From the IMG/VR virus record IMGVR_UViG_3300045988_136473: a stretch of DNA of 35,714 nucleotides; one strand, written 5' to 3'. The notes under the pieces are model-generated. The model searched no databases. It saw only the letters and a list, made by a program, of their open reading frames with translations, and was not told where the DNA came from. The stretch's first letter is position 1. Each line of letters begins with the position of its first letter. The stretch comes from a virus. Of the stretch, positions 1 through 35,714 are shown piece by piece. A program made the position numbers and the translations under genes.

Positions 1-86
1 ATTGAACCGCAGAAATACGGGAAAATGCGGGTTTCTTCTTATTTTGTCAACCTACATAAACCTACAAAAAACTACCTTACGGGATA
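1..86. repeat. Left copy of 86-bp terminal direct repeat
   Basis: Bases 1..86 are identical by eye to 35629..35714. Confidence 0.95.
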
Positions 87-3577: not shown

Positions 3578-3808
3578 ATGTCACCGCAAAAAGCAAGGAG
3601 CGTGATATTTATTTTTGAAAACACAGAAACCCTGAAGGTTGAAGAAGCGGCGGTGCTAATGCACAAAAACCCCGCATTCGTCAGAAAAGGGTTGCAGGAC
3701 AAGCGGTTCGGGTTCGGCTATGCCGTATATAACAACGGCAGGTGGAATTACTACATAAACCGCAAGAAATTTTTTGAAGAAACAGGCATCACAGAAAAGG
3801 CGGTGTAA
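3578..3808 (+). CDS. Putative excisionase / MerR-type HTH DNA-binding protein
   Basis: The pattern LKVEEAAVLMHKNPAFVRKGLQDKRF...Y.I.RKKFFE resembles excisionase-family HTH proteins. Start codon uncertain. Confidence 0.45.
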   Translation: MSPQKARSVIFIFENTETLKVEEAAVLMHKNPAFVRKGLQDKRFGFGYAVYNNGRWNYYINRKKFFEETGITEKAV

Positions 3809-3810
3809 TT

Positions 3811-4053
3811 ATGCTTGCAGAATTTATTGATTTGATTTTGACATTATGCTTCACGCTTGTACCGTTTGCGGCGGCAGGGTTCGTTGCTTTTGTAGTGTGC
3901 AGCATTGTATTCAAGATTGCAGACAAAAAAGAGCGTGAAGAACGCAGAGAAGCGCACAAGGCGCAAACTGCATCAGATATGTACGAAATGCAAAAGTGTT
4001 ACATTGATGCGGTTGTATTAAGTGTATTAAAGGAGGAGCAATATGCAGAATGA
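3811..4053 (+). CDS. Hypothetical membrane protein
   Basis: 80 aa. N-terminal hydrophobic stretch of about 35 aa. Confidence 0.5.
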   Translation: MLAEFIDLILTLCFTLVPFAAAGFVAFVVCSIVFKIADKKEREERREAHKAQTASDMYEMQKCYIDAVVLSVLKEEQYAE

Positions 4054-6580: not shown

Positions 6581-7189
6581 ATGAACGAAATTAAAGAAAT
6601 GACAATTGAAGAAATCACAAAGGTGCTCGGTTACGAAGTCAAGATTGTAAAAGAGCATAGCAAAGTGCAGCTTGCCGACATTGAGCAGTACAAAACCTTC
6701 AAAATCGGTGATACAGAATTCATTGTACTTGAACAGGACAATCACGGCGCAACAATTTGTTTGACAAGGAATTTTATTGCTAAAAATACGCAGTTTGACG
6801 AAGACACAAACAACCTTGCGAATGCATCCGTGCTGAAGGTTCTTGATGATTTTGAAAGCAAAATTGCTGATAATATCGGCGCTGATAATATGTGTGAATT
6901 TGAAATTGACCTGACAACAGATGACGGGTTAAAGGATTACGGTTCAATTACCCGCAAAACAGGTCTTCTGACTGATGTGCAATACCGCAAACATAGTGAA
7001 GGCATAGAACCGTATGAAGTTGATGACTGGTGGTGGCTTGCGAATGCAGTTTCAACACCCCGCCGTGATATTCAGTACGCTGTTCGCTGCGTTGCTTGCG
7101 GCGGTAATTTGGATGACTACAATTGTTTCAACGACATCGGGGTTCGTGCGGTTTGCATCTTCAAATCTAATATCTTTGTATCTGAATAA
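6581..7189 (+). CDS. DGR variable (target) protein, C-type-lectin/DUF1566-like C-terminus
   Basis: 202 aa. C-terminus DDWWWLANAVS...VRCVACGGNLDDYNCFNDIGVRAVCIF contains the VR. No signal peptide seen. Confidence 0.85.
   Translation: MNEIKEMTIEEITKVLGYEVKIVKEHSKVQLADIEQYKTFKIGDTEFIVLEQDNHGATICLTRNFIAKNTQFDEDTNNLANASVLKVLDDFESKIADNIGADNMCEFEIDLTTDDGLKDYGSITRKTGLLTDVQYRKHSEGIEPYEVDDWWWLANAVSTPRRDIQYAVRCVACGGNLDDYNCFNDIGVRAVCIFKSNIFVSE
7083..7155 (+). repeat. DGR variable repeat (VR)
   Basis: Aligns base for base with TR 7603..7675. There are 10 mismatches, 9 of them at TR adenines. Confidence 0.9.
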
Positions 7190-7200
7190 GGAGTATATCA

Positions 7201-7572
7201 ATGAAACAAGAAGGTGATTTGCAGGTCATCATCAAGGCGAAAAAGTTGTGTGTTCATACAATCAGGGTTACTTCAAATTGCAAGAAGTTTCCTAAAAAAT
7301 ACCGCTTTACGCTTTGTGACAAGATGCAAAACAAGGCAATGAAAATATATGAAAATTTGCTTGAAGCGAACAGAACGCTTTTGACCGACAAAGCGGCAAG
7401 AAATGAATTGCAGACAAAAGCAATTTTGTATTGTGATGAACTGCTTTTTTATATTGAAATGTGCCTTGATTTGCAAATCATTCAATCAAATAGTGCTGAT
7501 TTTTGGTCAAAACTTGTTACTGATATAAAATTTATGACTATTGCATGGCGGTCAAAGGATAAACAAAGATAA
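7201..7572 (+). CDS. avd: DGR accessory variability determinant (four-helix-bundle Avd)
   Basis: 123 aa, helical and basic. Positioned between the target gene and the TR. AAGGAG RBS. Confidence 0.8.
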   Translation: MKQEGDLQVIIKAKKLCVHTIRVTSNCKKFPKKYRFTLCDKMQNKAMKIYENLLEANRTLLTDKAARNELQTKAILYCDELLFYIEMCLDLQIIQSNSADFWSKLVTDIKFMTIAWRSKDKQR

Positions 7573-7602
7573 TCAGCACAGGCGGCAGGTTGAATTTGCA
7601 CA

Positions 7603-7675
7603 TTCGCTGCGTTGCTTGCGGCGGTAATATGAACAACAACAATTGTAACAACAACAACGGGGTTCGTGCGATTTG
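7603..7675 (+). repeat. DGR template repeat (TR)
   Basis: Non-coding. In the VR frame it reads ...GGN M NNN N C NNNN GVRA..., with seven AAC codons and one AAT. Confidence 0.9.
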
Positions 7676-7773
7676 GGAAAAAGTCAGACGGAGTACGCTA
7701 TAAGCCGAAATCAGTACATTCCTTTCAAACGAACTTGCCGCCTTTCTTTTGACCGTTGCAATAAAAGTGATAT

Positions 7774-8808
7774 ATGACAGATTTTGAAAAGATATGTGAT
7801 TTTAACAATCTATACAAAGCATACAAGAAGGCGAAGGCGGGTAAAGGATACCGCAACAGCGCCGCACAGTTTGAAATCAGAGCGCTTGACGGCATACAAC
7901 GATTGAAACTGATGCTTGAAAACAAAGAATATCAAGTTACAAAGTATAACAGTTTTTATGTGTATGAGCCGAAGCAGCGCTTGATTGAAGCGGCATCATT
8001 CAAGGACAAGGTTGTTCAACATTCGCTTTGCGATAATGTGCTTCTGCCAAAACTGCAAGATGTATTCATCAGGAATAATTTTGCAGGGCAGAAGGGCAAA
8101 GGTACATTGTTCGGGCTGAACACCCTGAAAGAGCAGATGCAAGCCTTCTATGATGAACACGGTATGTGCGGATATATTTTGAAGGCAGATGTGACAAAGT
8201 TTTTCTATACGATTGACCACGACATTGTGAAGGGGCTATTGCGCAAATATTTTGATGAACCTGATTTGTTGTGGCTGTGTGATGCGATTATTGACAGCAC
8301 AGAAGGCGCTGGTCTGCCTTTAGGCAACCAGTCAAGTCAGGTGTTTGCTTTAATGTATTTGCACGAATTAGACGGCTTTGTGGCTTCAGAAACAAACATC
8401 AGGTATTACGGCAGGTATATGGATGATTTTTACCTGATACATCAGGACAAAGAATACTTGAAACAATGCCTTCTTCAGATTGAAGAAATCATACACAGTT
8501 TGAATTTAACGCTGAACGGCAAAACGCAAATAATGCCATTCAAGCAAGGTATTAAATTTCTCGGCTTTCACACCTACATCAAAGACGGTAAAGTGCTTTG
8601 CCGTATCAAGAACGAAAACAAGCGAAATGCCTTTCGCAAGTATAAGAAAATGGCGCAGCTTGTTGTTGAAGGCAAGGTTGAATTATCAAAATTTAATGAA
8701 TGTTATCAATCTTGGAAGGCACACGCTGCTTTCGGTGATTGTGAAGGTATTGTGAAAAGCCTTGATGCACAAATAAATCAAATTTTAGGAGTTGAACTAT
8801 ATGTATAA
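7774..8808 (+). CDS. DGR reverse transcriptase
   Basis: 344 aa. YMDD at 8416..8427. LGNQSSQ at 8320..8340, the DGR-type [I/L]GxxxSQ motif. The size and the lack of maturase/endonuclease domains fit DGR RTs. Confidence 0.92.
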   Translation: MTDFEKICDFNNLYKAYKKAKAGKGYRNSAAQFEIRALDGIQRLKLMLENKEYQVTKYNSFYVYEPKQRLIEAASFKDKVVQHSLCDNVLLPKLQDVFIRNNFAGQKGKGTLFGLNTLKEQMQAFYDEHGMCGYILKADVTKFFYTIDHDIVKGLLRKYFDEPDLLWLCDAIIDSTEGAGLPLGNQSSQVFALMYLHELDGFVASETNIRYYGRYMDDFYLIHQDKEYLKQCLLQIEEIIHSLNLTLNGKTQIMPFKQGIKFLGFHTYIKDGKVLCRIKNENKRNAFRKYKKMAQLVVEGKVELSKFNECYQSWKAHAAFGDCEGIVKSLDAQINQILGVELYV

Positions 8809-8923
8809 CAAACACAAGCAGAGAAGCAGAAAGACCTACAAAAAAGGGCTTCATAATTTCAGAAAGTTTATGACGGCAAGACCCGACAAGAAGTATTACC
8901 ACAGAATGGGGGGGCTTTTCTGA
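8801..8923 (+). CDS. Candidate 40-aa highly basic peptide
   Basis: MYNKHKQRSRKTYKKGLHNFRKFMTARPDKKYYHRMGGLF. AGGAG RBS 9 nt upstream. The start overlaps the RT stop (ATGTATAA) and the stop overlaps the next start (TGATG). Below the ORF-track length cut-off. Confidence 0.4.
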   Translation: MYNKHKQRSRKTYKKGLHNFRKFMTARPDKKYYHRMGGLF

Positions 8924-9384
8924 TGAATAGCGAAAAACGAATTGTTGAAATAAACGGTGTGAAAATGGAAGTTGACCTGTCAACCTGCCGCCGCATTGAT
9001 GAATTCAGGGTCGGTGATGCGGTCAAGATTTTGCACAAGGGTAACGATTACCGAAGTGACACAATCTTTGTCGGCACGATTGTTGAATTTGTGAATTTCA
9101 AAGAACTGCCGACAATCAAGATTGCTGTTTTCAAACAGGATTATCACGGCAGCGCCGAAATTGAATTCATTTATTACAACAAAAACACAAGGGAGTATGA
9201 AATCATACCCGCAATGAAGTCTGATTTAACCCTTGAAAAAAGCGCCGTTGTTGACAAATTCAACAACAAAATTGAAGAGAAGAAAAACGAAATTGCCGAA
9301 CTTGCGGCGAAGCGTGACTGGTTCATTGCACATTACGGCAAGTATTTTGCAATTGATGAAGAAATTGAAACGGAGGACAAATAA
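8923..9384 (+). CDS. Hypothetical protein
   Basis: 153-aa ORF, translationally coupled to its neighbours. Confidence 0.55.
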   Translation: MNSEKRIVEINGVKMEVDLSTCRRIDEFRVGDAVKILHKGNDYRSDTIFVGTIVEFVNFKELPTIKIAVFKQDYHGSAEIEFIYYNKNTREYEIIPAMKSDLTLEKSAVVDKFNNKIEEKKNEIAELAAKRDWFIAHYGKYFAIDEEIETEDK

Positions 9385-10835: not shown

Positions 10836-11165
10836 ATGTCAGGTAAACGAAGCAGAAACAAGGGCAAGGCGGGTGAAAGAGAACTTGCAAAGCTGCTGCG
10901 CAATCTTGGGTTTGATACAAGAAGGGGGCAGCAGTATTGCGGCGCAAACGGTGATGCTGATGTTGTCGGCTTGCCAAACATTCACATTGAATGCAAACGC
11001 AATGAAGGCTTACGCCTGTATGATGCGCTTGCACAGGCAAAGGCTGATGCCCAGCAGGGCGAAATACCTGTTGTGATGCACCGCCGCAACAATTGTGAAT
11101 GGGTTGCTGTCTTGACCCTTGAAGATTTTATCAAGATTTACAAGGAGTCAGATTACTACAAATGA
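10836..11165 (+). CDS. Putative Holliday-junction resolvase / PD-(D/E)xK nuclease
   Basis: KGKAGERELAKLL..GF....DADVVGLPNIHIECK pattern. ATG at 10836 lies 8 nt after a GAAGGAG RBS. Confidence 0.5.
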   Translation: MSGKRSRNKGKAGERELAKLLRNLGFDTRRGQQYCGANGDADVVGLPNIHIECKRNEGLRLYDALAQAKADAQQGEIPVVMHRRNNCEWVAVLTLEDFIKIYKESDYYK

Positions 11166-11827
11166 ACATATTAGTAGCGTGTGAAGAAAGCCAAAGGGTA
11201 TGTATGGCTTTTAGAAATAAAGGGCATAAGGCATTCAGTTGTGATGTGATTGAATGCAGCGGCGGACACCCTGAATGGCATATACAGCAGGATGTAATAC
11301 CGCTGTTAAATGGTAATTGTACTTTTAAAACCTGTGACGGCACAGTACATAAGATTGACAGCAGGTGGGATATGATAATTGCATTTCCGCCGTGTACAAA
11401 AACAAGCAATGCGGGAGCAAGGCATTTGTGGAAAGGTCATAAATTGAATTTACAAAGATATTATGAAGGACTTTGCGGTAAAGCATTGTTTATGACAATT
11501 TATAATGCCGATTGCGATAAAGTTGTGATTGAAAATCCAACACCGAGTAAGATTTTTGAGTATCCAGACCCAACGCAGAAAATACAGCCTTATCAATTTG
11601 GACATCCTTTTACAAAGTTAACATTGCTTTGGGAAAAAGGTGTTAAACCGTTAGTGCCAACAAATATTGTTGAAGCAAAAAACACTTGGTGTCCAAGCGG
11701 TTCATATTCAAAAAAACACGGTGAACAGCACAGAGGTATGTTTACAAAAAATCGTGCAAGAAACAGAAGCAAAACCTTTCCAGGCATAGCCCAAGCAATG
11801 GCAGAACAGTGGGGTGATGCAGTATAG
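11162..11827 (+). CDS. DNA cytosine-methyltransferase-like protein
   Basis: IIAFPPCT (PC catalytic-loop-like) and VVIENP (ENV-like) motifs. No clear FxGxG motif, so the assignment is tentative. Confidence 0.45.
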   Translation: MNILVACEESQRVCMAFRNKGHKAFSCDVIECSGGHPEWHIQQDVIPLLNGNCTFKTCDGTVHKIDSRWDMIIAFPPCTKTSNAGARHLWKGHKLNLQRYYEGLCGKALFMTIYNADCDKVVIENPTPSKIFEYPDPTQKIQPYQFGHPFTKLTLLWEKGVKPLVPTNIVEAKNTWCPSGSYSKKHGEQHRGMFTKNRARNRSKTFPGIAQAMAEQWGDAV

Positions 11828-11976
11828 CAAGGTGGGGTGTCGGTTATTTAGGCAGCAAATCAGGTATTGCAGATGACATTGTTGCCTTACTGCCTCCAGC
11901 AACAAGATTATATGACCTTTTCGGCGGCGGCGGTGCAATCACACATTGCGCTGCCCTGTCGCAGAAGTACGGTAAA

Positions 11977-12753
11977 GTGATTTATAACGATATAGGCGAT
12001 ATTGCAACGCTGTTCAAACAGGCGGTATCAGGCATTGACAAGTACATTGACACATCAGAATTCATTACAAGGCAGATGTTCAATGACCGCAAGTCAGATT
12101 GCCCGTATATCAAATACAATTGGTCTTTCGGCAACAGCGGTGAAGGCTATATGTACGGCGCAGAGTTAGAGAAATGGAAACATTGTCTGCACAATGCAAT
12201 TTTTTTCTTTGATGTTTCAGGCTTCAAAAAGTATTACGGTCTTGAATTGCCTGTATATGAAGACATCAAGAACCGCCGATTGCGGCGGCTTGCATATTCA
12301 GCTTATATCAAGGAGCATAACCTTGAAAGCGAACAAAGGCTGTACGAATTACAGAGCCTTGAAGGGTTAGAACGCATTGAAAGCCTTGAACGGCTGCAAA
12401 ACATTGAACGCTTGCAGCGCCTTGACGGGCTGGAAACCCTTGAAATTCACAATAAAAGTTATGATGAATTTGAAATCACAGAAGGCATCATTTATTGTGA
12501 CATACCGTACAAAGACACGGTGTGCGGGTCATACGGTGGTTTTGACCACAATGCGTTTTATGAATGGGCTGAACATCAGGTTGTGCCTGTTTACATAAGC
12601 GAATATGCAATGCCTGATGACAGGTTCAAAGAGATTGCCGCCTTCAGCAAGCGCCAGCAGTATAACGCAATCGGCAGCGGCGCTGAAGTGAAAGAAAAAA
12701 TCTTTGTGCCGAAACATCAGGAAGTTATCACAAATCAATTATCATTCTTTTAA
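11977..12753 (+). CDS. Dam-type N6-adenine DNA methyltransferase (the conserved N-terminus extends upstream to about 11824 without a canonical start)
   Basis: DIPY (DPPY-like) motif in IIYCDIPYKD. The same frame upstream reads WGVGYLGSKSGIADDIVALLPPATRLYDLFGGGGA (motif I). The GTG at 11977 is the first canonical start. Confidence 0.7.
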   Translation: MIYNDIGDIATLFKQAVSGIDKYIDTSEFITRQMFNDRKSDCPYIKYNWSFGNSGEGYMYGAELEKWKHCLHNAIFFFDVSGFKKYYGLELPVYEDIKNRRLRRLAYSAYIKEHNLESEQRLYELQSLEGLERIESLERLQNIERLQRLDGLETLEIHNKSYDEFEITEGIIYCDIPYKDTVCGSYGGFDHNAFYEWAEHQVVPVYISEYAMPDDRFKEIAAFSKRQQYNAIGSGAEVKEKIFVPKHQEVITNQLSFF

Positions 12754-25586: not shown

Positions 25587-27965
25587 ATGGAATTATTCAA
25601 ATTATTTGCAACCCTTGCTATACGAAACAAAGAAGCAAATGATGCTATTGACGAAACAACGGGCAAAGCTGAAGGCGCAAAGGGTAAATTATCAGGAGCG
25701 TTTTCAAAAATCGGTTCAGCAGCGCTGAAGGTCGGCAAGGTTATTGCGACAGGTTTGGCGGCTGGTGCAGGTGCGGTTGTTGCGATTACAAAACAGGCTG
25801 TTGATGCGTATGCAGATTATGAACAGTTAGTCGGCGGTGTTGAAACGCTTTTCAAAGATAGTGCCGATACTGTTTTGAATTATGCAAACAACGCATACAA
25901 AACAGCGGGACTTTCTGCAAACGATTATATGGAAACTGTCACAAGTTTTTCAGGGGCGTTATTGCAGAGCCTGAACGGCGATACAGCAGCGGCGGCAAAA
26001 AAAGCAGACCTTGCAGTTACCGATATGTCAGATAATATGAACAAAATGGGTTCATCTATGGAATCTATTCAAAACGCATATCAGGGTTTTGCAAAGCAAA
26101 ATTACACGATGCTTGACAACCTAAAATTAGGTTACGGCGGCACGAAAGAAGAAATGCAAAGGCTTCTTTCTGATGCTGAAAAGTTAAGCGGTCAAAAATT
26201 TGATATTAGCAGTTATTCAGATGTTGTTGATGCTATACACATTGTGCAAACCGAAATGGGCATTACAGGCACAACGGCAAAAGAAGCTTCAACAACAATT
26301 CAGGGTTCTTTGTCATCATTAAAGGCTTCTTGGCAAAATCTGCTTGTCGGTCTTACGGATGACAGTCAGGATTTTGATACGCTACTTTCAAATGTTCTTG
26401 ATAACGCCATCAATCTTCTGCAATTATTATTGCCCCGTATTACAACAATTTTCGGTCAATTGCCGAAATTGATACAGGGTATTTTGCCGCAGATTCCGCC
26501 TGTGCTGCGTGAACTTTTGCCGCAGTTGCTTGTTGCGGCTGAAGACCTGTTGCACGGTTTGGTGGCTGCATTGCCTGAATTGATTGATATTTTGCTTGAT
26601 ATTTTGCCTGATGTGTTAGATGCAGTAATGCAAATCGGGCTTGAATTGGTCAATGCATTGCCGCAAATAACGGATTCAATTATAGCATTTTTGACAAATC
26701 AATCAACGATAACGGCATTGATACAGGCGGCAATCACCCTGTTCATGGCGTTGGTTGCTGCGATTCCTGAAATTGCAAGTCAAATCGTAGAAGCTGCGCC
26801 CGTAATCATTGAAGCCTTGATAACAGGTATAATTCAGTCAATACCGCAATTGTTATCAGGTTTGCAGCAGGTCATTGACAATTTCGGGCAGTTTGCTTCA
26901 AGTATTTGGGGCGTAATTCAGCAAATTTGGGGTGCTGTATCAGGGTGGTTCAAAGAATACATCATTGACCCGATTGTGAACTTTTTTACAGGCTTGTGGA
27001 ACAAGGTAGTTGAAATCTGGAATCAAATAAGCAATGCAATTTCGGCTGCATTTCAGTTTATTGCAAGCATCATTTCAGCGGCGTTTCAGATTATAACATT
27101 GCCCTTCAGGTTCATTTGGGAAAATTGCAAAGAATATGTGTTCGCTGCCTTTGATGCAATAAAAACCTTTATCAGTAACGCAATAAACAACATCAAGACG
27201 GTTATATCAACGGTGCTGAATGCGATTAAATCCGTATGGAATACGGTGTGGGGCGCAATCAAGAATTTCTTGACTCCTATATTTAACGCAATCAAAAATG
27301 TTGTTACAACGGTTTTTACTGCTATAAAAGACTTTATTGCAACCCGTATTCATAACATCAAAACGAATGTGACAAATGTGTTCAATGCAATCAAGAATGC
27401 TATATCAACACCGTTGAATGCGGCAAAAACGGCAGTCACGAATGTTTTTGACGGCATCAAAAGCAAGATTGATACAGTCATCAGCGGTGCAAAAAGCATT
27501 GTGAAGAAGGGTATTGGTGCAATCAAGGGTATGTTTGAGAAATTAAAACTGAAATTTCCTGATATTAAGCTGCCGCATTTCGGCATTTCACCCAGCGGCT
27601 GGAAGGTATCAGATTTGCTTGAAGGTTCTATACCGAAATTAAGCATTGAATGGTATGCGAAGGCTATGGACAACGGTATGATCCTTGAAAAACCGACAAT
27701 TTTCGGTGTCAATGCGAAGGGTCAGCCTATGGGCGCAGGTGAAGCAGGAAGTGAAACGGTAGTCGGCACAAACAGCCTGATGACAATGATTAAAGCGGCG
27801 GTTGCGGAGTCAAACGCAAATGCAAATACAACGCTTGAAAAGATACTTGCGGCGATTATCAATATTGACCGCACAATATATGAAAAGGTTGTTGCAGCGC
27901 TTCAGACAATGGGCATTGAATTTGATGAAAGAGAACTTGCAAGGCTGGTGAAGAAATATGCTTGA
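25587..27965 (+). CDS. Tape measure protein
   Basis: 792 aa, helical and Ala/Ile-rich, with reiterated NAIKN-like motifs. Canonical position. Confidence 0.9.
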   Translation: MELFKLFATLAIRNKEANDAIDETTGKAEGAKGKLSGAFSKIGSAALKVGKVIATGLAAGAGAVVAITKQAVDAYADYEQLVGGVETLFKDSADTVLNYANNAYKTAGLSANDYMETVTSFSGALLQSLNGDTAAAAKKADLAVTDMSDNMNKMGSSMESIQNAYQGFAKQNYTMLDNLKLGYGGTKEEMQRLLSDAEKLSGQKFDISSYSDVVDAIHIVQTEMGITGTTAKEASTTIQGSLSSLKASWQNLLVGLTDDSQDFDTLLSNVLDNAINLLQLLLPRITTIFGQLPKLIQGILPQIPPVLRELLPQLLVAAEDLLHGLVAALPELIDILLDILPDVLDAVMQIGLELVNALPQITDSIIAFLTNQSTITALIQAAITLFMALVAAIPEIASQIVEAAPVIIEALITGIIQSIPQLLSGLQQVIDNFGQFASSIWGVIQQIWGAVSGWFKEYIIDPIVNFFTGLWNKVVEIWNQISNAISAAFQFIASIISAAFQIITLPFRFIWENCKEYVFAAFDAIKTFISNAINNIKTVISTVLNAIKSVWNTVWGAIKNFLTPIFNAIKNVVTTVFTAIKDFIATRIHNIKTNVTNVFNAIKNAISTPLNAAKTAVTNVFDGIKSKIDTVISGAKSIVKKGIGAIKGMFEKLKLKFPDIKLPHFGISPSGWKVSDLLEGSIPKLSIEWYAKAMDNGMILEKPTIFGVNAKGQPMGAGEAGSETVVGTNSLMTMIKAAVAESNANANTTLEKILAAIINIDRTIYEKVVAALQTMGIEFDERELARLVKKYA

Positions 27966-28920
27966 TAAATTTTACTATTTGAACAATTACGGCGAAACGC
28001 TGTATTTCGGCAAAGAAGGCATCTTTGCTTTTTACAATGATTTGCGTGATTATCAATGGGGTTATGAGAGTGTAAACGAAAAAATCACAGGCTTTACAAG
28101 GGGCATTGTCACAAAAAAACTACCTGTTTTGTTCCTGTCGGCATCAGGTCAGCAGACAAGACAGGCAAGAAACAGAGCCTATGAAATAATTGAAAAAGAT
28201 GTGCTTGCGAATAAGAAGGGCAAATTGTACTGCAACGGATATTACATGGAATGCTGGCTGATAGGTACATCAAACAGCGAATACCTAAACAGCGAAAGTT
28301 ACCTGAAGACCGAATTTGCGGTTGTAACAGACAAGCCCGAATGGGTGAAGGCAACAACACTTTCATTCGTTCCTACTACACAGGCGGCGGGTGAATATGA
28401 TGTTGACTTTGACTGCGATTTTCCTTTTGACCTTCAGGCAGTATCTTATGCAACAAATACCCTGATAAACCCCTTTGCATTTGCAAGTCAGTTTATATTG
28501 AATATATACGGCGCTTGTGAAAACCCGCAAATCACAATCGGTGATTACACCTATTTATTCAATTGTGAATTGTCGGCTGGTGAAAGGCTTGAAGTGAACA
28601 CCCTGACAAAGAAAATTTACAAATATGATTTGCAGGGCAATGTTGAAAATTATTTCAATTGTCGCAACAAAGAACAGACGGTCTTTGCAGCGATACCCAG
28701 CGGCAACAAGCAGGTACAATGGAATAATGAATTTTCATTTGACCTGATGCTGTTGCAGCAGCGGTCTGAACCTGAATGGTCATACACTGCAAAGAGCGTA
28801 TCAGATATTGCCGACATTGAAGTTGTTGACAGTAGGTATTACCTTATTGATACAAACGGCGAATACATCATGGACAATTACAACGAACCTATCAGCGTAC
28901 AATCGGCGGCAGGTGATTGA
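27958..28920 (+). CDS. Distal tail protein (Dit-like)
   Basis: 320 aa, directly after the tape measure gene. Confidence 0.6.
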   Translation: MLDKFYYLNNYGETLYFGKEGIFAFYNDLRDYQWGYESVNEKITGFTRGIVTKKLPVLFLSASGQQTRQARNRAYEIIEKDVLANKKGKLYCNGYYMECWLIGTSNSEYLNSESYLKTEFAVVTDKPEWVKATTLSFVPTTQAAGEYDVDFDCDFPFDLQAVSYATNTLINPFAFASQFILNIYGACENPQITIGDYTYLFNCELSAGERLEVNTLTKKIYKYDLQGNVENYFNCRNKEQTVFAAIPSGNKQVQWNNEFSFDLMLLQQRSEPEWSYTAKSVSDIADIEVVDSRYYLIDTNGEYIMDNYNEPISVQSAAGD

Positions 28921-28922
28921 TT

Positions 28923-29909
28923 ATGGAGTTTATAATTGCAGATGCAAACAAAAAAGACTTGTGTTTTTTAGACGAAGGCGCAAGTCTTGATTTTGATGTC
29001 GGTGCATCAGATGACTTTCAAATCAGCATAGCGCTGGACAGTTATAATCCTGAAGCGCACATTGAAGGCAATATTTTATATTGCATAGGCACCGAATACG
29101 GCGGCATATTCAATGACCCTGAAATCAGCACAAAAGAGCGTAAAAAAACGCTGACAGGCGATACCTTCAGGGGAATGCTGAAGAAAAAGTACATTGAACC
29201 TGCAAGCGGTCAGGACTATAAGACGATAAGCGGTGAACTGAATGCCTGTATTGCGCAGCTTATGAACAGCGCATTTTCAAATATGCTTTTCAGGGTGTCA
29301 AGCGCAAGCACTGGCGTTTCCGTTTCGGGCTTTCAGTTTGACCGTTATTGCAGTTTGCTTGACGGCATCAACAAGATGCTTGCTTCAAAGGACTTCAGAT
29401 TAAGTATAAAGGCGGTGCGGGTTGAAGATGACTTCTTCATTGAACTTGCCGCAAAACCGCTTGTTGATTATTCTGAAGACATTGAATTTTCACAGGACAA
29501 TGATGTGAATTTCAAAATCAAAAGGGTTACAAACAAATATAACTATATGATAGCACTTGGCAAAGGTGAACTTCACAAAAGGCAAGTGCTTTATTTTCGT
29601 TGTGATGCGGGTGGTGCTGTAACGCAGGTCAGCGCAATACCGAAGGGCGATAATGTCAAGGTGTACTTGTATGATAATACATCAACAGAAGACTTTGCAG
29701 CAGATGCAGTGAAGAAGTTTGCAGAAATCAATGCAGCTGACGAATATTCAATGACAATGAAAGATGACATTGAACTTGAAATCGGTGATGTTGTCGGTGG
29801 CAGGGACTACATTACAGGCTTGACGATTGCCCAGCCTATTACAAGGAAAATTATAAAATACAACAACAAAAAACAATCAATATCTTATGAAATAGGGGGT
29901 AAACAATAA
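28923..29909 (+). CDS. Tail-associated/baseplate protein (siphovirus Gp37-like)
   Basis: Position after Dit. N-terminus MEFIIADANKKDLCFLDEG. Confidence 0.45.
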   Translation: MEFIIADANKKDLCFLDEGASLDFDVGASDDFQISIALDSYNPEAHIEGNILYCIGTEYGGIFNDPEISTKERKKTLTGDTFRGMLKKKYIEPASGQDYKTISGELNACIAQLMNSAFSNMLFRVSSASTGVSVSGFQFDRYCSLLDGINKMLASKDFRLSIKAVRVEDDFFIELAAKPLVDYSEDIEFSQDNDVNFKIKRVTNKYNYMIALGKGELHKRQVLYFRCDAGGAVTQVSAIPKGDNVKVYLYDNTSTEDFAADAVKKFAEINAADEYSMTMKDDIELEIGDVVGGRDYITGLTIAQPITRKIIKYNNKKQSISYEIGGKQ

Positions 29910-30883
29910 TGCCTAAAATTATTACAGGTCATACAGGCACACCGCACATCACTTCTGATGATGTCCGCGCTTTGCTCAAAGCAATTATCGGCAGTAATGA
30001 TTACCTGTTAAGTGATGACACCAGCACATTTGTTGCAACGCAGCTTGACAACAATGTTGTGCAGATGCCTGATGCTGAAGTTGTGCTGCAAGGCACACAT
30101 ATCAGAGTGCAGCAGACAGATACCGTGACGGTTGCGCAGGGTCAGAATGGTATGAAACGCTTTGACCTGATTGTTTGCCGTTATACGAAAGCGCAGGAAG
30201 GTATTGAAGGCGCTGAAATTGATATTGTGACGGGTACACCCGCCGCATCTGACCCCGCTGTACCTGCTGTCACGCAGGGTGACATTAGGGGCGGTGCATT
30301 GCTTCACGAAATGCCGTTGTTCAAGGTTGAATTAGACGGCTTTTCAATTGTTTCAATTGCAGGTGTGTGCAACACAATCAATTCGCTGAAAGCATCTTTT
30401 GCGGCGATAAGCGCTTCAATTCTTTCTTCAGAAGAAAGAACGGCGCAAAGCATCAAAAGCATAAACGAAACGCAGGTGCGCTTTGCAGACATGGTGAACA
30501 CAAAGTTTGCAAACATAAACGCAAACAGCATCTTGTGGTCAGGTGCTTACTATATGACGGCAGCGCATTCATTCACAATACCTTCTGTTCAAAATCAAAC
30601 AAACGGCATTGTGCTTGTCTTTAGTTTATACGCTGATAAAGAAGCGAAAGACGGGACTTTTCATTCATTCTTCATACCGAAGGCGGCTGTTTCAAAGCAT
30701 AATGGTCGCGGTTGGAGTTTCTGCTTGTTTGAACGCCTTTTTTCAAAGGCGGCAAACAAGTACATTTACATCAATGACACGAAGATTACAGGCAATGACA
30801 GTAACAATAAATCGGGTACAGGCGCTTGTGGTATCAAGTATGAAAATTCCCGTTTTGTGCTGCGCTATGTAATCGGTGTATAA
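29909..30883 (+). CDS. Hypothetical tail/baseplate protein
   Basis: 324 aa, translationally coupled (ATAATG). Confidence 0.4.
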   Translation: MPKIITGHTGTPHITSDDVRALLKAIIGSNDYLLSDDTSTFVATQLDNNVVQMPDAEVVLQGTHIRVQQTDTVTVAQGQNGMKRFDLIVCRYTKAQEGIEGAEIDIVTGTPAASDPAVPAVTQGDIRGGALLHEMPLFKVELDGFSIVSIAGVCNTINSLKASFAAISASILSSEERTAQSIKSINETQVRFADMVNTKFANINANSILWSGAYYMTAAHSFTIPSVQNQTNGIVLVFSLYADKEAKDGTFHSFFIPKAAVSKHNGRGWSFCLFERLFSKAANKYIYINDTKITGNDSNNKSGTGACGIKYENSRFVLRYVIGV

Positions 30884-30897
30884 AGGGGTGATTAACT

Positions 30898-32700
30898 ATG
30901 GCACGAATTAGACAGTATGAATTGCTGGAGGAATTCAACGGTGATGAAACCTTTGTTGTTGAAACAGACAACGGCACAAAAGCCCTGTCGGTTAATGCAA
31001 TCAAAGACCACATCACAGAAAAGATTGAAGAAAAAGCCGCACAGTTAAATCAAAGTGAAGTTACGGTTGAAAGTGACAATGAGTCAGAGTATATTTTAAG
31101 TATATCAATCGGCGCTGAAACGATAACCACGCCGAACTTGAAGGGCAAATCAATTGCTTCAATTCAGGTTGTAAATCATCACCTGATGATTTACTTTAAT
31201 GATGCAACAAGTTATGATTGCGGTGTCATTGACGGCGAAGTGCCGAAGTACGGTGTGTGCCGTGACATTCCTAGTCATAGCCCGACACTTACAAGGGTGG
31301 GTGATGCAACAGGTTTAATTGCGCAGGTCTTCAAGGGTAATAACGATGAAGAAATCAGAAATGATTTTGACACGATTTACCCGTGGAGCGAAATCAAACG
31401 GTGCACACTTTCAAACAACGGTGCTGTAAATCATTATGAAGATGACCCCGATTATAAGGAAGACGGCACAGACGGTCAGGTCATGGTCGAAATACCGAAA
31501 TTCTATATTGCGCACTATTTTGATGAAAGCGGTGCAAAAGAATACTGGTACATTTCAAAAGAAAAAATTAACAGCAGGTACAGGCTGCCGAAGCCCTTTA
31601 TTGCGGCAGACGGCACCGAACTTGACCACATTTACATTGCAGCGTTTTTGTCGACAAATGACAACGAAAATATCCTTGACAGTAAATCAACCCCGACAGC
31701 AAAGGCAGCAGACTTTGCATATAGTTGGGCGGTTGAATACGCAAAGACAAGGGGTACAAACTGGCATCAGCTTGATATTGCTGAATATTCAGATGTGCTT
31801 GTGCCGCTGTTCATTGTTGAATTTGCAACACTTGACAGCCAGTCAGTGTTCTATGCAGCGGATTCAGAGTATGTTGCTGATTATATGTATGTATCATTAG
31901 AGCAGGTCATGGCAGATAATCCCGACACATCACTTGTGACACGGGGCAATGAATTCTTTGTGTACGGCGAAAATGAATACTTTGTCGGTCAGGAAATTTC
32001 AATTTTCGGCATAGCTGCTGAAGATGTAACGGGTGATTGTGATGTCAAAGATGAAACGAACGGTCCATACGCAATCAGGAACATCACGAATGTTCAAGTT
32101 GTCGGCAAAGATGAAGCAAAAGGTGTTGACCTTTTGAAGATTACCTTTGACGGCGGGGCGGTTGATATTCACAATAAAGAACAATTCATGGTAAATATCG
32201 GCAGAAATGGTGTAACAAATTACATCTATTATGAAGTTGGGTATTTGTCAGGTTCGTTTGCAGCACCTAAAGACCAAGGAAGTGACTTCGTTTACAGGGG
32301 CATTGAAAACCTGTACGGCAAATACACATGGCTTGCAGGTGTGCTGAAAAGGCGCTACGAGTATTTTGTAACAGACAAACTTGCGGCATACGGTACGGCT
32401 ATTACAGACGATTATGCGAAACTGGGTTATAATGCTACAATGATAGGCTTTGTCAGAAAATTGGGTCTTGATGAAGCATATCCGTGGGCAACCTTGCCGA
32501 CAGAGAACGGCGGCGCATCAGATACTGATTTTTGCGATAAGACAATATGCACAGGCGCGGACATGGTCAAATCGGTTCGTTTCGGCGGCGGTTATGACTT
32601 TTCTTGTGGCTTGTTCGCCTTCTATTGCAACACTAATGCTACTGATACGAATGTGAATAATCGGTGCGGTGCCCGTCTTTCTTACAGGTCATATCAATAG
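30898..32700 (+). CDS. Tail fibre / receptor-binding protein
   Basis: 600 aa, the last large structural gene. C-terminus VRFGGGYDFSCGLFAFYCNTNATDTNVNNRCGARLSY looks lectin-like. Confidence 0.6.
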   Translation: MARIRQYELLEEFNGDETFVVETDNGTKALSVNAIKDHITEKIEEKAAQLNQSEVTVESDNESEYILSISIGAETITTPNLKGKSIASIQVVNHHLMIYFNDATSYDCGVIDGEVPKYGVCRDIPSHSPTLTRVGDATGLIAQVFKGNNDEEIRNDFDTIYPWSEIKRCTLSNNGAVNHYEDDPDYKEDGTDGQVMVEIPKFYIAHYFDESGAKEYWYISKEKINSRYRLPKPFIAADGTELDHIYIAAFLSTNDNENILDSKSTPTAKAADFAYSWAVEYAKTRGTNWHQLDIAEYSDVLVPLFIVEFATLDSQSVFYAADSEYVADYMYVSLEQVMADNPDTSLVTRGNEFFVYGENEYFVGQEISIFGIAAEDVTGDCDVKDETNGPYAIRNITNVQVVGKDEAKGVDLLKITFDGGAVDIHNKEQFMVNIGRNGVTNYIYYEVGYLSGSFAAPKDQGSDFVYRGIENLYGKYTWLAGVLKRRYEYFVTDKLAAYGTAITDDYAKLGYNATMIGFVRKLGLDEAYPWATLPTENGGASDTDFCDKTICTGADMVKSVRFGGGYDFSCGLFAFYCNTNATDTNVNNRCGARLSYRSYQ

Positions 32701-32792
32701 GGGGTCTGGGGGACACTGACCCCCAGCGGCTTCTTACAACAAATACATTAAACCGTATCTTGATTTTGACAAGATAAAGGAGGTTACCAAAA

Positions 32793-33293
32793 ATGAAAGC
32801 AGAAAGCAGCAGCAGACCCGCTGCCTATCAGGTCAATGTGTCTGAAGGCAAAGCGGTCATCAGATTTGCTGATAACATTGAACGCATTGAAGCTGAAGTT
32901 GACGGGGAAAAGATTTTGTCGTACAAATATGACAGTTACACCTTTGAAACAACGAACCGTCAGGGGCTTGCAGAAGATGTTGAAAACAAATTTGAAGACT
33001 GGCTTGCGGCGGCGAAACAGGCAGAGTATAACAGGCTGGCAAAAGAAATCAGGGCAAAGCGAAATGCCCTTCTTGCCGACACCGACAAAGATTTCACCTT
33101 TGACAGGCTGGGCATCACATTCCCTGATAAAATCACCGCATCAACGCTTCTTGCGGTGGTGAAAACAATATGCACCGAACTTGCGGCGGCTTGCAGTTGT
33201 CAAATGGCGGTATATCGTCAGGCATTAAGAGATATCCCGCAGCAGGAGGGCTTCCCGTATGATGTGAAGTTTCCTTCAAAACCGAATAATTGA
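32793..33293 (+). CDS. Hypothetical protein (possible tail-fibre assembly/XkdW-like)
   Basis: Position, and the motif AKRNALLADTDKDF. Confidence 0.35.
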   Translation: MKAESSSRPAAYQVNVSEGKAVIRFADNIERIEAEVDGEKILSYKYDSYTFETTNRQGLAEDVENKFEDWLAAAKQAEYNRLAKEIRAKRNALLADTDKDFTFDRLGITFPDKITASTLLAVVKTICTELAAACSCQMAVYRQALRDIPQQEGFPYDVKFPSKPNN

Positions 33294-35628: not shown

Positions 35629-35714
35629 ATTGAACCGCAGAAATACGGGAAAATGCGGGTTTCTTCTTATTTTGTCAACCTACATAAACCTACAAAAAAC
35701 TACCTTACGGGATA
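35629..35714. repeat. Right copy of 86-bp terminal direct repeat
   Basis: Identical to 1..86. Confidence 0.95.

Follow-up and report, generated by a model that had tools for sequence, protein, structure and literature searches.

Discovery of a recently active diversity-generating retroelement in a gut prophage

We found that the 35,714-nt virus record IMGVR_UViG_3300045988_136473 (hereafter the window, meaning the whole stretch of DNA analyzed) carries, between positions 6581 and 8808, a complete diversity-generating retroelement (DGR) of the type known from phage BPP-1, which was probably active in its recent natural history. We put the probability of this reading at roughly 0.93. The parts lie on the plus strand in the order target gene, avd, template repeat (TR) and reverse transcriptase (RT). 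Specifically, the target open reading frame (ORF) of the variable protein (6581..7189, 202 residues) is followed by avd, the accessory variability determinant (7201..7572, 123 residues), the non-coding TR (7603..7675) and an RT with YMDD and LPLGNQSSQ motifs (7774..8808, 344 residues). An earlier note on this DNA had listed four DGR parts in canonical order on one strand, and all of them are present.

TR and the variable repeat (VR, 7083..7155, plus strand) form a 73-nt direct repeat with 86% identity, and their alignment agrees with the collinear arrangement at an offset of exactly 520 nt claimed in the same note. The two copies differ at 10 positions in the window, 9 of which are TR adenines. 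As TR holds 20 adenines in 73 nt, a binomial estimate gives a chance of about 7e-5 for at least 9 of 10 mismatches to fall on adenines. The tenth mismatch, C7634 in TR against T7114 in VR, is a synonymous change from GAC to GAT at the third codon position.

VR corresponds to target codons 168-192. The note was right about its extent of about 25 codons and wrong in placing it at the very end of the gene, for ten codons follow it. Likewise, TR is 73 nt long and non-coding, as claimed; the gap between avd and RT is 201 nt, and no plus-strand ORF of at least 40 amino acids (aa) runs over TR. The description "largely AAC" did not hold, since TR consists of an AAY-rich core with adenine-free flanks. 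The 33-nt core reads AAT-ATG-(AAC)3-AAT-TGT-(AAC)4, so that nine AAY codons (seven AAC and two AAT) and one ATG stand among about 24 codons, and adenine-free arms lie on both sides. Nineteen of the TR adenines are within this core and one more is at 7671. In VR, the corresponding hypervariable core spans 7106..7138, where codons 176-181 and 183-186 vary and C182 (TGT) is constant, and the 3' end (7139..7155) is adenine-free and G+C-rich (GGGGTTCGTGCGGTTTG). The TR/VR pair is the only long internal repeat of the window, the other long repeat being the terminal attachment site (att) duplication. A repeat search of the window found no further VR, and the target is its sole VR-bearing gene.

VR alleles differ at the positions of template adenines

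To compare alleles at the DNA level, we recovered independent assemblies for five further alleles and for a relative (L002, IMGVR_UViG_3300045988_172631), and aligned the 2228-nt cassette. Each allele of the same phage departed from the window at 11-17 positions of the 73-nt VR. In the remaining 2155 nt, 0-1 positions differed, and none of them in TR. Divergence within VR reached 15-23% of positions; next to 0-1 changes elsewhere, this pattern agrees with ongoing or very recent targeted mutation and not with old divergence. The L002 cassette is 96% identical to that of the window, and its TR is identical.

When the seven distinct VR alleles were compared with TR, 75 of the 78 substitutions were at TR adenines. 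All 20 adenine positions were affected, compared with 3 of the 53 other positions (Fisher 4e-15). The earlier note had proposed population data as the check on its reading, and polymorphism at TR-adenine positions is indeed what these alleles from different assemblies display.

The same pattern was observed at the protein level. A 90%-identity protein cluster with 30 members has the exact target sequence as its representative. In the 14 members aligned, residues 1-169 and 187-202 are identical and C182 is invariant, while codons 176-181 and 183-186 differ; the other changes are two singletons at C170. Across 36 close protein variants from three neighboring clusters, ten codons vary, and elsewhere in VR there are three singletons at C170 and C173. 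At the nine AAY codons, each residue found in the 36 proteins is among the 15 that an adenine-only change can reach, and K, E, Q, M, W and stop are never present. The ATG codon gives M, L or V only. In sum, the between-sample alleles appear to show the outcome expected of mutagenic retrohoming.

A7671 in TR, which faces G7151 in VR, is a fixed difference between the two repeats and not a diversified site. G7151 is constant in 9 distinct VR DNA sequences (including the seven target alleles and the second target of L002), TR keeps A, and V191 is invariant across the 36 proteins. By analogy with the distinction between IMH and IMH* (IMH, initiation of mutagenic homing), we infer that this difference marks a boundary of information transfer, and 7139..7155 is a candidate IMH-like element that would give homing its direction.

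The RT is most similar to a DGR enzyme

A PDB sequence search identified the BPP-1 DGR RT (bRT, 8ub7_A) as the best solved relative of the RT (E 2.8e-34, 122 bits, residues 5-331), far ahead of group II intron RTs (2.4e-8) and retron-type RTs (about 5e-5). In the alignment, LGNQSSQ of the window RT matches IGSLTSQ of bRT, and YMDD matches YMDD. Library searches returned Pfam RVT_1 (3.1e-16) and PHROG phrog_1423 (6.6e-111), and the closest RT of a GenBank phage is that of nd12, with 49% identity. Membership of the DGR clade is supported by these matches and by the [LIV]GxxxSQ motif, in line with the DGR-type RT that the note had recognized from YMDD and LGNQSSQ; the nearest solved relative is bRT, not a retron or group II RT.

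We also considered that the RT might be of another class (retron, group II intron, or an Abi/DRT defense system), with the repeat being an unrelated duplication. The top NCBIfam matches, to group II RT/maturase and Drt3a models, point that way, and no DGR-RT model was among the NCBIfam matches. These scores are far under the cutoffs, however (93 versus 300 and 56 versus 200), as is that of a retron model. Moreover, bRT leads the solved relatives by a wide margin, with the LGNQSSQ motif aligned to its IGSLTSQ, the mismatches of the repeat are adenine-specific, and an Rfam scan of the whole window found no family at the gathering threshold, including no retron or group II RNA. We regard this explanation as having next to no probability.

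Two observations concern the RT gene itself. In an 84%-identical relative (L003 4001-5035), the RT frame breaks off after about 180 codons and is taken up again at LPLGNQSSQ, reflecting either pseudogenization or an assembly error. In the window, a very basic ORF of 40-43 aa (8792-8923, plus strand; about 30% K+R) overlaps the RT stop codon and is kept in L002 and in another relative, L093. It was tried as an extra DGR component and rejected, as no such ORF follows the RT in more distant relatives; a general role in these elements is improbable.

The 123-residue protein resembles Avd

The product of the second gene matched the PHROG family "Avd protein of DGR" (E 2.2e-20). Its single-sequence model consists of four long helices at a predicted local distance difference test (pLDDT) score of 65. 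Foldseek placed two 23S-IVS-type bundles (2rld and 2gsc) first among the structural neighbors, followed by BPP-1 Avd (4dwl and 8ub7_B), with a template modeling score (TM) of about 0.6 and a probability of 0.97-0.98. The matches to Avd hidden Markov models and the modeled four-helix bundle agree with the Avd-like helical protein proposed before, and on this model the protein has the features of an Avd-type four-helix accessory protein.

Covarying RNA elements surround TR

To analyze the RNA around TR, we aligned the region from the avd stop codon to the RT start from 20 loci whose RTs are 53-84% identical to that of the window, and used RNAalifold. Three elements were predicted on the plus strand. 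Helix 1 (12 bp) joins 7580-7591 with 7732-7743; its 5' strand starts 8 nt past the avd stop codon, and 10 of its pairs show compensatory changes among the 20 loci. Helix 2 (5 bp) joins 7674-7678, at the 3' end of TR, with 7723-7727, is paired in 97% of cases and has 3 pairs with compensatory changes. A spacer hairpin (7696..7706) has 3 bp in the relatives, all three pairs being compensatory in some sequences; in the window, C faces C at the outer position (7696-7706), which leaves only 2 bp. Over the 20 pairs of the three elements, 98% of alignment cells are paired, versus 31-44% when the partners are slid by 1-3 columns. Compensatory changes occur in 16 of the 20 pairs, and none of 500 shuffles attained the observed values.

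The hairpin belongs to a near-invariant spacer motif (7691-7715, alignment columns 143-166), which reads GAGUA-GGC-N4/5-GCC-GAAAUCAG in the relatives. Its stem covaries and the flanking unpaired bases are invariant, and it may be a candidate Avd-binding stem-loop or another protein-contact site. Further downstream, the segment 7723..7743 holds the 3' strand of helix 2, an invariant CAAA (7726-7729) that includes A7727, and the 3' strand of helix 1.

In the BPP-1 ribonucleoprotein, the TR 3' end pairs with the spacer (Sp) to form the template:primer duplex, which ends at the priming adenosine Sp A56; two nucleotides later begins the avd:Sp duplex ("cPRT Stop"), which ends cDNA synthesis and is required for it (bioRxiv 10.1101/2023.10.23.563531). 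By analogy, helix 2 would be the counterpart of the TR:Sp duplex, and helix 1 that of the cPRT Stop, a predicted barrier at which the cDNA terminates. A7727 is the predicted priming nucleotide, corresponding to Sp A56. The cDNA should then run from about 7673 back to about 7592, just spanning the 73-nt TR.

Past helix 1 (alignment columns 199-225, about 7744-7770 in the window), most relatives have a short covarying stem-loop (such as UCC-GAAA-GGA or CCAC-UAG-GUGG) and then an A-rich tract, UAAAYAAAAAG, a combination reminiscent of the BPP-1 cPRT Stop with its stem-loop and A-minor adenosines. In the lineage of the window, the sequence allows no more than a UC/GA stem of 2 bp and a loop of UUUU at this place.

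Taking the repeat and the RNA elements into account, we propose the following course. The avd-TR-RT region would be transcribed, and the RNA would fold such that the 12-bp helix 7580-7591/7732-7743 closes TR into a loop and the TR end (7674-7678) pairs with 7723-7727. RT and the four-helix Avd would prime cDNA on the RNA itself, probably at the invariant A7727, and RT would copy TR towards the long-range helix, placing random bases opposite template adenines. The cDNA would replace VR (7083-7155) by means of the adenine-free homology arms, with G7151/A7671 marking the edge of the transferred segment. Nine AAY codons and one ATG codon of the target would be rewritten in this way, in a surface beta-hairpin, giving a library of binding specificities; by arithmetic, 15^9 x 3 or about 1e11 proteins are possible.

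Points against recent activity of a complete element

Several observations weigh against the reading of a complete and recently active DGR. The minimum-free-energy fold of the window TR RNA was no better than those of shuffles (z -0.35), and support for the helices therefore rests on covariation. Downstream of VR, we found no DNA hairpin or cruciform of the kind reported for BPP-1 (z -0.15). The match of the putative Avd to NCBIfam DivGenRetAVD (E 7.1e-11) scored 42 bits against a cutoff of 80, its Pfam matches to 23S_rRNA_IVP (1e-6) and bAvd (4e-4) are under the curated cutoffs, and PDB searches with the protein or with a profile of 15 relatives did not find BPP-1 Avd by sequence. Three of the 78 VR substitutions are not at adenines. 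Variation between assemblies is a record of past activity, not of present activity. Finally, one VR allele (P0121, in L088-L092) recurs in at least five different samples, on backgrounds that carry either 8101 G>T or 7396 G>A. This allele may be stably inherited or selected, or the samples may be related, and its recurrence suggests that the DGR stays quiet for long periods during lysogeny.

The recurrence of one allele beside different flanking single-nucleotide polymorphisms, together with the interrupted RT frame of L003, would also suit a relic, decayed or domesticated, in which homing has ceased, its VR differences being old and kept by recombination between phages. Such a relic is hard to reconcile with three intact ORFs, a TR identical across alleles, substitutions specific to adenines, and RNA helices kept by compensatory change; a VR divergence of 15-23% beside 0-1 differences in the other 2155 nt speaks against it as well. 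We consider a relic improbable, and keep to the reading of an element that was active recently.

The target is modeled as a divergent DUF6273 protein

The target matched PHROG phrog_9958 (E 1.3e-36). The protein itself gave no match in Pfam (none at E<=0.1) or NCBIfam, and a PDB sequence search with it returned nothing useful. Among its homologues, 38 of 61 matched Pfam PF19789 (DUF6273), the best at 1.7e-11. An alignment-based AlphaFold (AF2) model folded into a single domain with a pLDDT of 94.2 and a predicted TM score (pTM) of 0.83, and its best structural neighbors in Foldseek were phage DUF6273 proteins (TM about 0.66). The top PDB fold match was the IgA peptidase of Thomasclavelia ramosa (E 9.4e-5), the N-terminal domain of which is DUF6273 (PMC12402451). 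The Legionella Lcl C-terminal domain came next, then weak C-type lectins (E>0.1), and Mtd was not listed among the best 50 Foldseek PDB matches. By DSSP, the modeled residues of the variable codons fold into a beta-hairpin with strands 177-181 and 185-188. DUF6273 has been called C-lectin-like, and VR forms a beta-hairpin in the targets of nd4 and nd12 (PMC10743442). As judged from the model and from its homologues, the target is probably a divergent member of this C-type-lectin-like family. A protein of the Mtd type is not indicated: the 202-residue single domain contains no beta-prism or beta-sandwich domains, and the gene lies outside the tail module.

Four cysteines of the target, C170, C173, C182 and C192 (7088-7156), are invariant or nearly so in close homologues. 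Distant homologues keep C170 and C192 almost without exception and often have C182. C182 is encoded by TGT, a codon without adenine at the center of the variable core. These cysteines could brace the hairpin through disulfides or a metal site. Among the longer homologues P0050 (291 aa) and P0060 (270 aa), one is fused to an N-terminal DUF551 (PF04448) and another has an acidic C-terminal extension of about 80 aa; some phages join the small target scaffold to other modules.

Related cassettes and known systems

The element shares much with the BPP-1 DGR (mtd-avd-TR-brt). The gene order is the same, the BPP-1 RT is the closest solved relative, and an Avd-type four-helix protein is common to both. 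Differences between TR and VR are adenine-specific in both systems and VR lies near the C terminus of the target, and the RNAs have the same layout of an upstream:spacer and a TR-3'-end:spacer duplex. In contrast, TR is 73 nt in the window and 134 nt in BPP-1, and the 5' strand of the long-range helix follows the avd stop codon in the window, whereas it lies inside avd in BPP-1. The targets also differ, a single-domain DUF6273 protein of 202 residues as opposed to the trimeric Mtd of 381 residues with beta-prism and beta-sandwich domains. The BPP-1 cassette adjoins tail genes, whereas the window cassette is in an early recombination/replication module.

The closest relatives, L002 and a prophage in GCA_965617265.1, have the same lineage and cassette, with an identical or near-identical TR. 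Unlike the window with its single target, both encode an additional DUF6273 target, 3.7-3.9 kb upstream, that carries a VR of its own. In L002, this second target (L082 904-1443) has 179 residues and lacks the N-terminal helix; its VR (VR2, L002 146-218) has 14 mismatches to TR, 11 of them at A. It corresponds to the junction around 3800-4030 of the window, from which the gene is absent, and L002 lacks the window gene at 8923-9384. The second VR of L093 is 3.9 kb upstream.

More broadly, most of about 50 loci with related RTs keep the order target-avd-TR-RT, with a small target immediately before avd (offset -507 to -614 nt). In about 21 of the loci, a further target stands in tandem, at about -1040 to -1130. 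Searches for the cassette itself were less productive: megablast against GenBank phages returned a 43-nt RT fragment only, an exact 26-mer scan of viral contigs found one relative only, a scan of genome contigs with the target alignment gave no confirmed relative, and a scan of metagenome contigs with the VR core unconstrained recovered only the L002 allele already known.

Small DUF6273 targets of DGRs have been reported before, namely target2 of nd4/nd12 (Baykov et al. 2023, PMC10743442), the small targets of Faecalibacterium phages Lelie and CP11, along with targets of Roos and Pioen (Gulyaeva et al. 2024, PMC11792537), and that of Toutatisvirus (FP_Toutatis; bioRxiv 10.1101/2024.10.15.618418). 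Like the window target, they are single globular C-lectin-like domains with VR as a C-terminal beta-hairpin, and the window target is 30-38% identical to those of nd4/nd12 and the Faecalibacterium phages. In nd4, nd12, Lelie and Toutatis, however, the small target is a second and remote one, and the cassette adjoins a large immunoglobulin (Ig)-containing target (tentaclin or Hoc-like), whereas in the window the small protein is the sole target and stands directly before avd. The Clostridia lineage that hosts the window phage also differs from that of nd4/nd12 and the Faecalibacterium phages.

The cassette lies among early genes of a prophage integrated at ssrA

The window is a temperate siphovirus-type prophage. 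Genes for an integrase, a CI-like repressor, a Sak-like annealing protein, a RecE-like exonuclease, NinB and an HNH-like protein precede the DGR. After it come SSB, a replisome organizer, methyltransferases, terminase, portal, head and tail genes, then the tape measure, Dit, minor tail and fiber proteins, holin and endolysin. The methyltransferases are two adjoining DNA methyltransferase-like genes (11162-12753, plus strand; phrog_757 at 8e-50 and phrog_56 at 6e-14), found after the replisome organizer.

Over 17.2 kb, the window is 100% identical to a 289-kb metagenomic scaffold (L083), in which the prophage comes directly after smpB and the transfer-messenger RNA (tmRNA) gene ssrA, and, within L083 3053-3506, the left att copy overlaps the tmRNA 3' end. 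The GCA_965617265.1 prophage is likewise integrated by smpB/tmRNA. The identical 86-nt ends of the window (1-86 and 35629-35714) are part of an att duplication of about 122 nt; an overlap from circular assembly was considered for this terminal repeat and rejected in favor of the att duplication at the tmRNA gene. The window thus represents a prophage with ssrA as its integration site, cut out at the att repeats. Host RecR shares 92-95% identity with proteins of metagenome-assembled genomes (MAGs) labeled Eubacterium sp. or uncultured Clostridia; for Acutalibacteraceae MAGs, the identity is 65-76%. Because the MAG labels are inconsistent, we name the host only as uncultured gut Clostridia, and nothing finer.

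Possible roles of the target protein

By analogy with known DGR targets, a role in binding the phage or cell surface is most likely for the target; its position in the early operon would also allow a non-virion role. In the latter case, the DGR would work as described and its target would be an early-expressed, non-structural cytoplasmic binder, for example of variable host defense or competitor-phage proteins. The target is tightly packed in a same-strand recombination/replication operon, with the Sak-like, RecE-like, NinB and HNH-like genes upstream and SSB and the replisome organizer downstream, and no plus-strand terminator-like site was found between 6000 and 9400. The tail and fiber genes (27958-33293) are more than 20 kb away and without a VR. 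The small DUF6273 targets of FP_Toutatis, Lelie and nd4 likewise have early or replication genes as neighbors and are far from the DGR cassettes of these phages, and one target homologue is fused to DUF551, as described above. Among 80 loci with related RTs, 19 have a homologue of SSB, Sak, the exonuclease or the replisome organizer within 4 kb, and 2 have one of terminase, a count that is biased by the faster divergence of structural proteins.

Gene position, for its part, is weak evidence for the timing of expression. No N-terminal signal-peptide-like or hydrophobic segment was seen in the target by eye; on the other hand, Mtd itself is not known to have a signal peptide. DUF6273 is otherwise found in large phage proteins (tail-fiber-like, receptor-binding or Ig-containing) and in an IgA protease that is secreted and anchored to the wall, both of which suggest extracellular binding. 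The authors who described small DUF6273 targets suppose them to be Mtd-like receptor binders (PMC10743442; bioRxiv 10.1101/2024.10.15.618418). Weighing both sides, we hold a cytoplasmic role of the window target to be possible and the less probable option. Still more tentatively, and with slightly lower confidence, the small DUF6273 DGR targets of gut phages in general might be early-expressed intracellular hypervariable binders, employed by temperate phages against variable host or rival-phage factors (for example in anti-defense or host take-over), and not virion receptor binders; DGR function would then reach beyond surface recognition into an intracellular arms race.

Significance of the element

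The earlier note had called this element the most unusual functional system in the window, which overstates its novelty. A target homologue is encoded at 49 of the 80 loci with related RTs, so the architecture is common in gut viromes. DGRs have been catalogued by the tens of thousands. The element is little new in kind, as both the type of system and the family of small DUF6273 targets were already known. What is less usual is that the small protein is the sole target and that it is set among early recombination/replication genes.

The value of the element lies in its being a clean natural example, with one short TR, one small and confidently modeled target, and many alleles on an otherwise identical background. 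Its RNA structure is backed by covariation and maps onto the BPP-1 ribonucleoprotein, making it a compact candidate for the study or engineering of targeted diversification. The placement of a small target among early genes recurs in at least three phage lineages, and the main question this raises is which ligand, and at which cellular location, is bound by a hypervariable lectin-like protein whose gene has recombination and replication genes for neighbors. Should the target turn out not to be part of the virion, the current idea of the purpose of phage DGRs would become broader.

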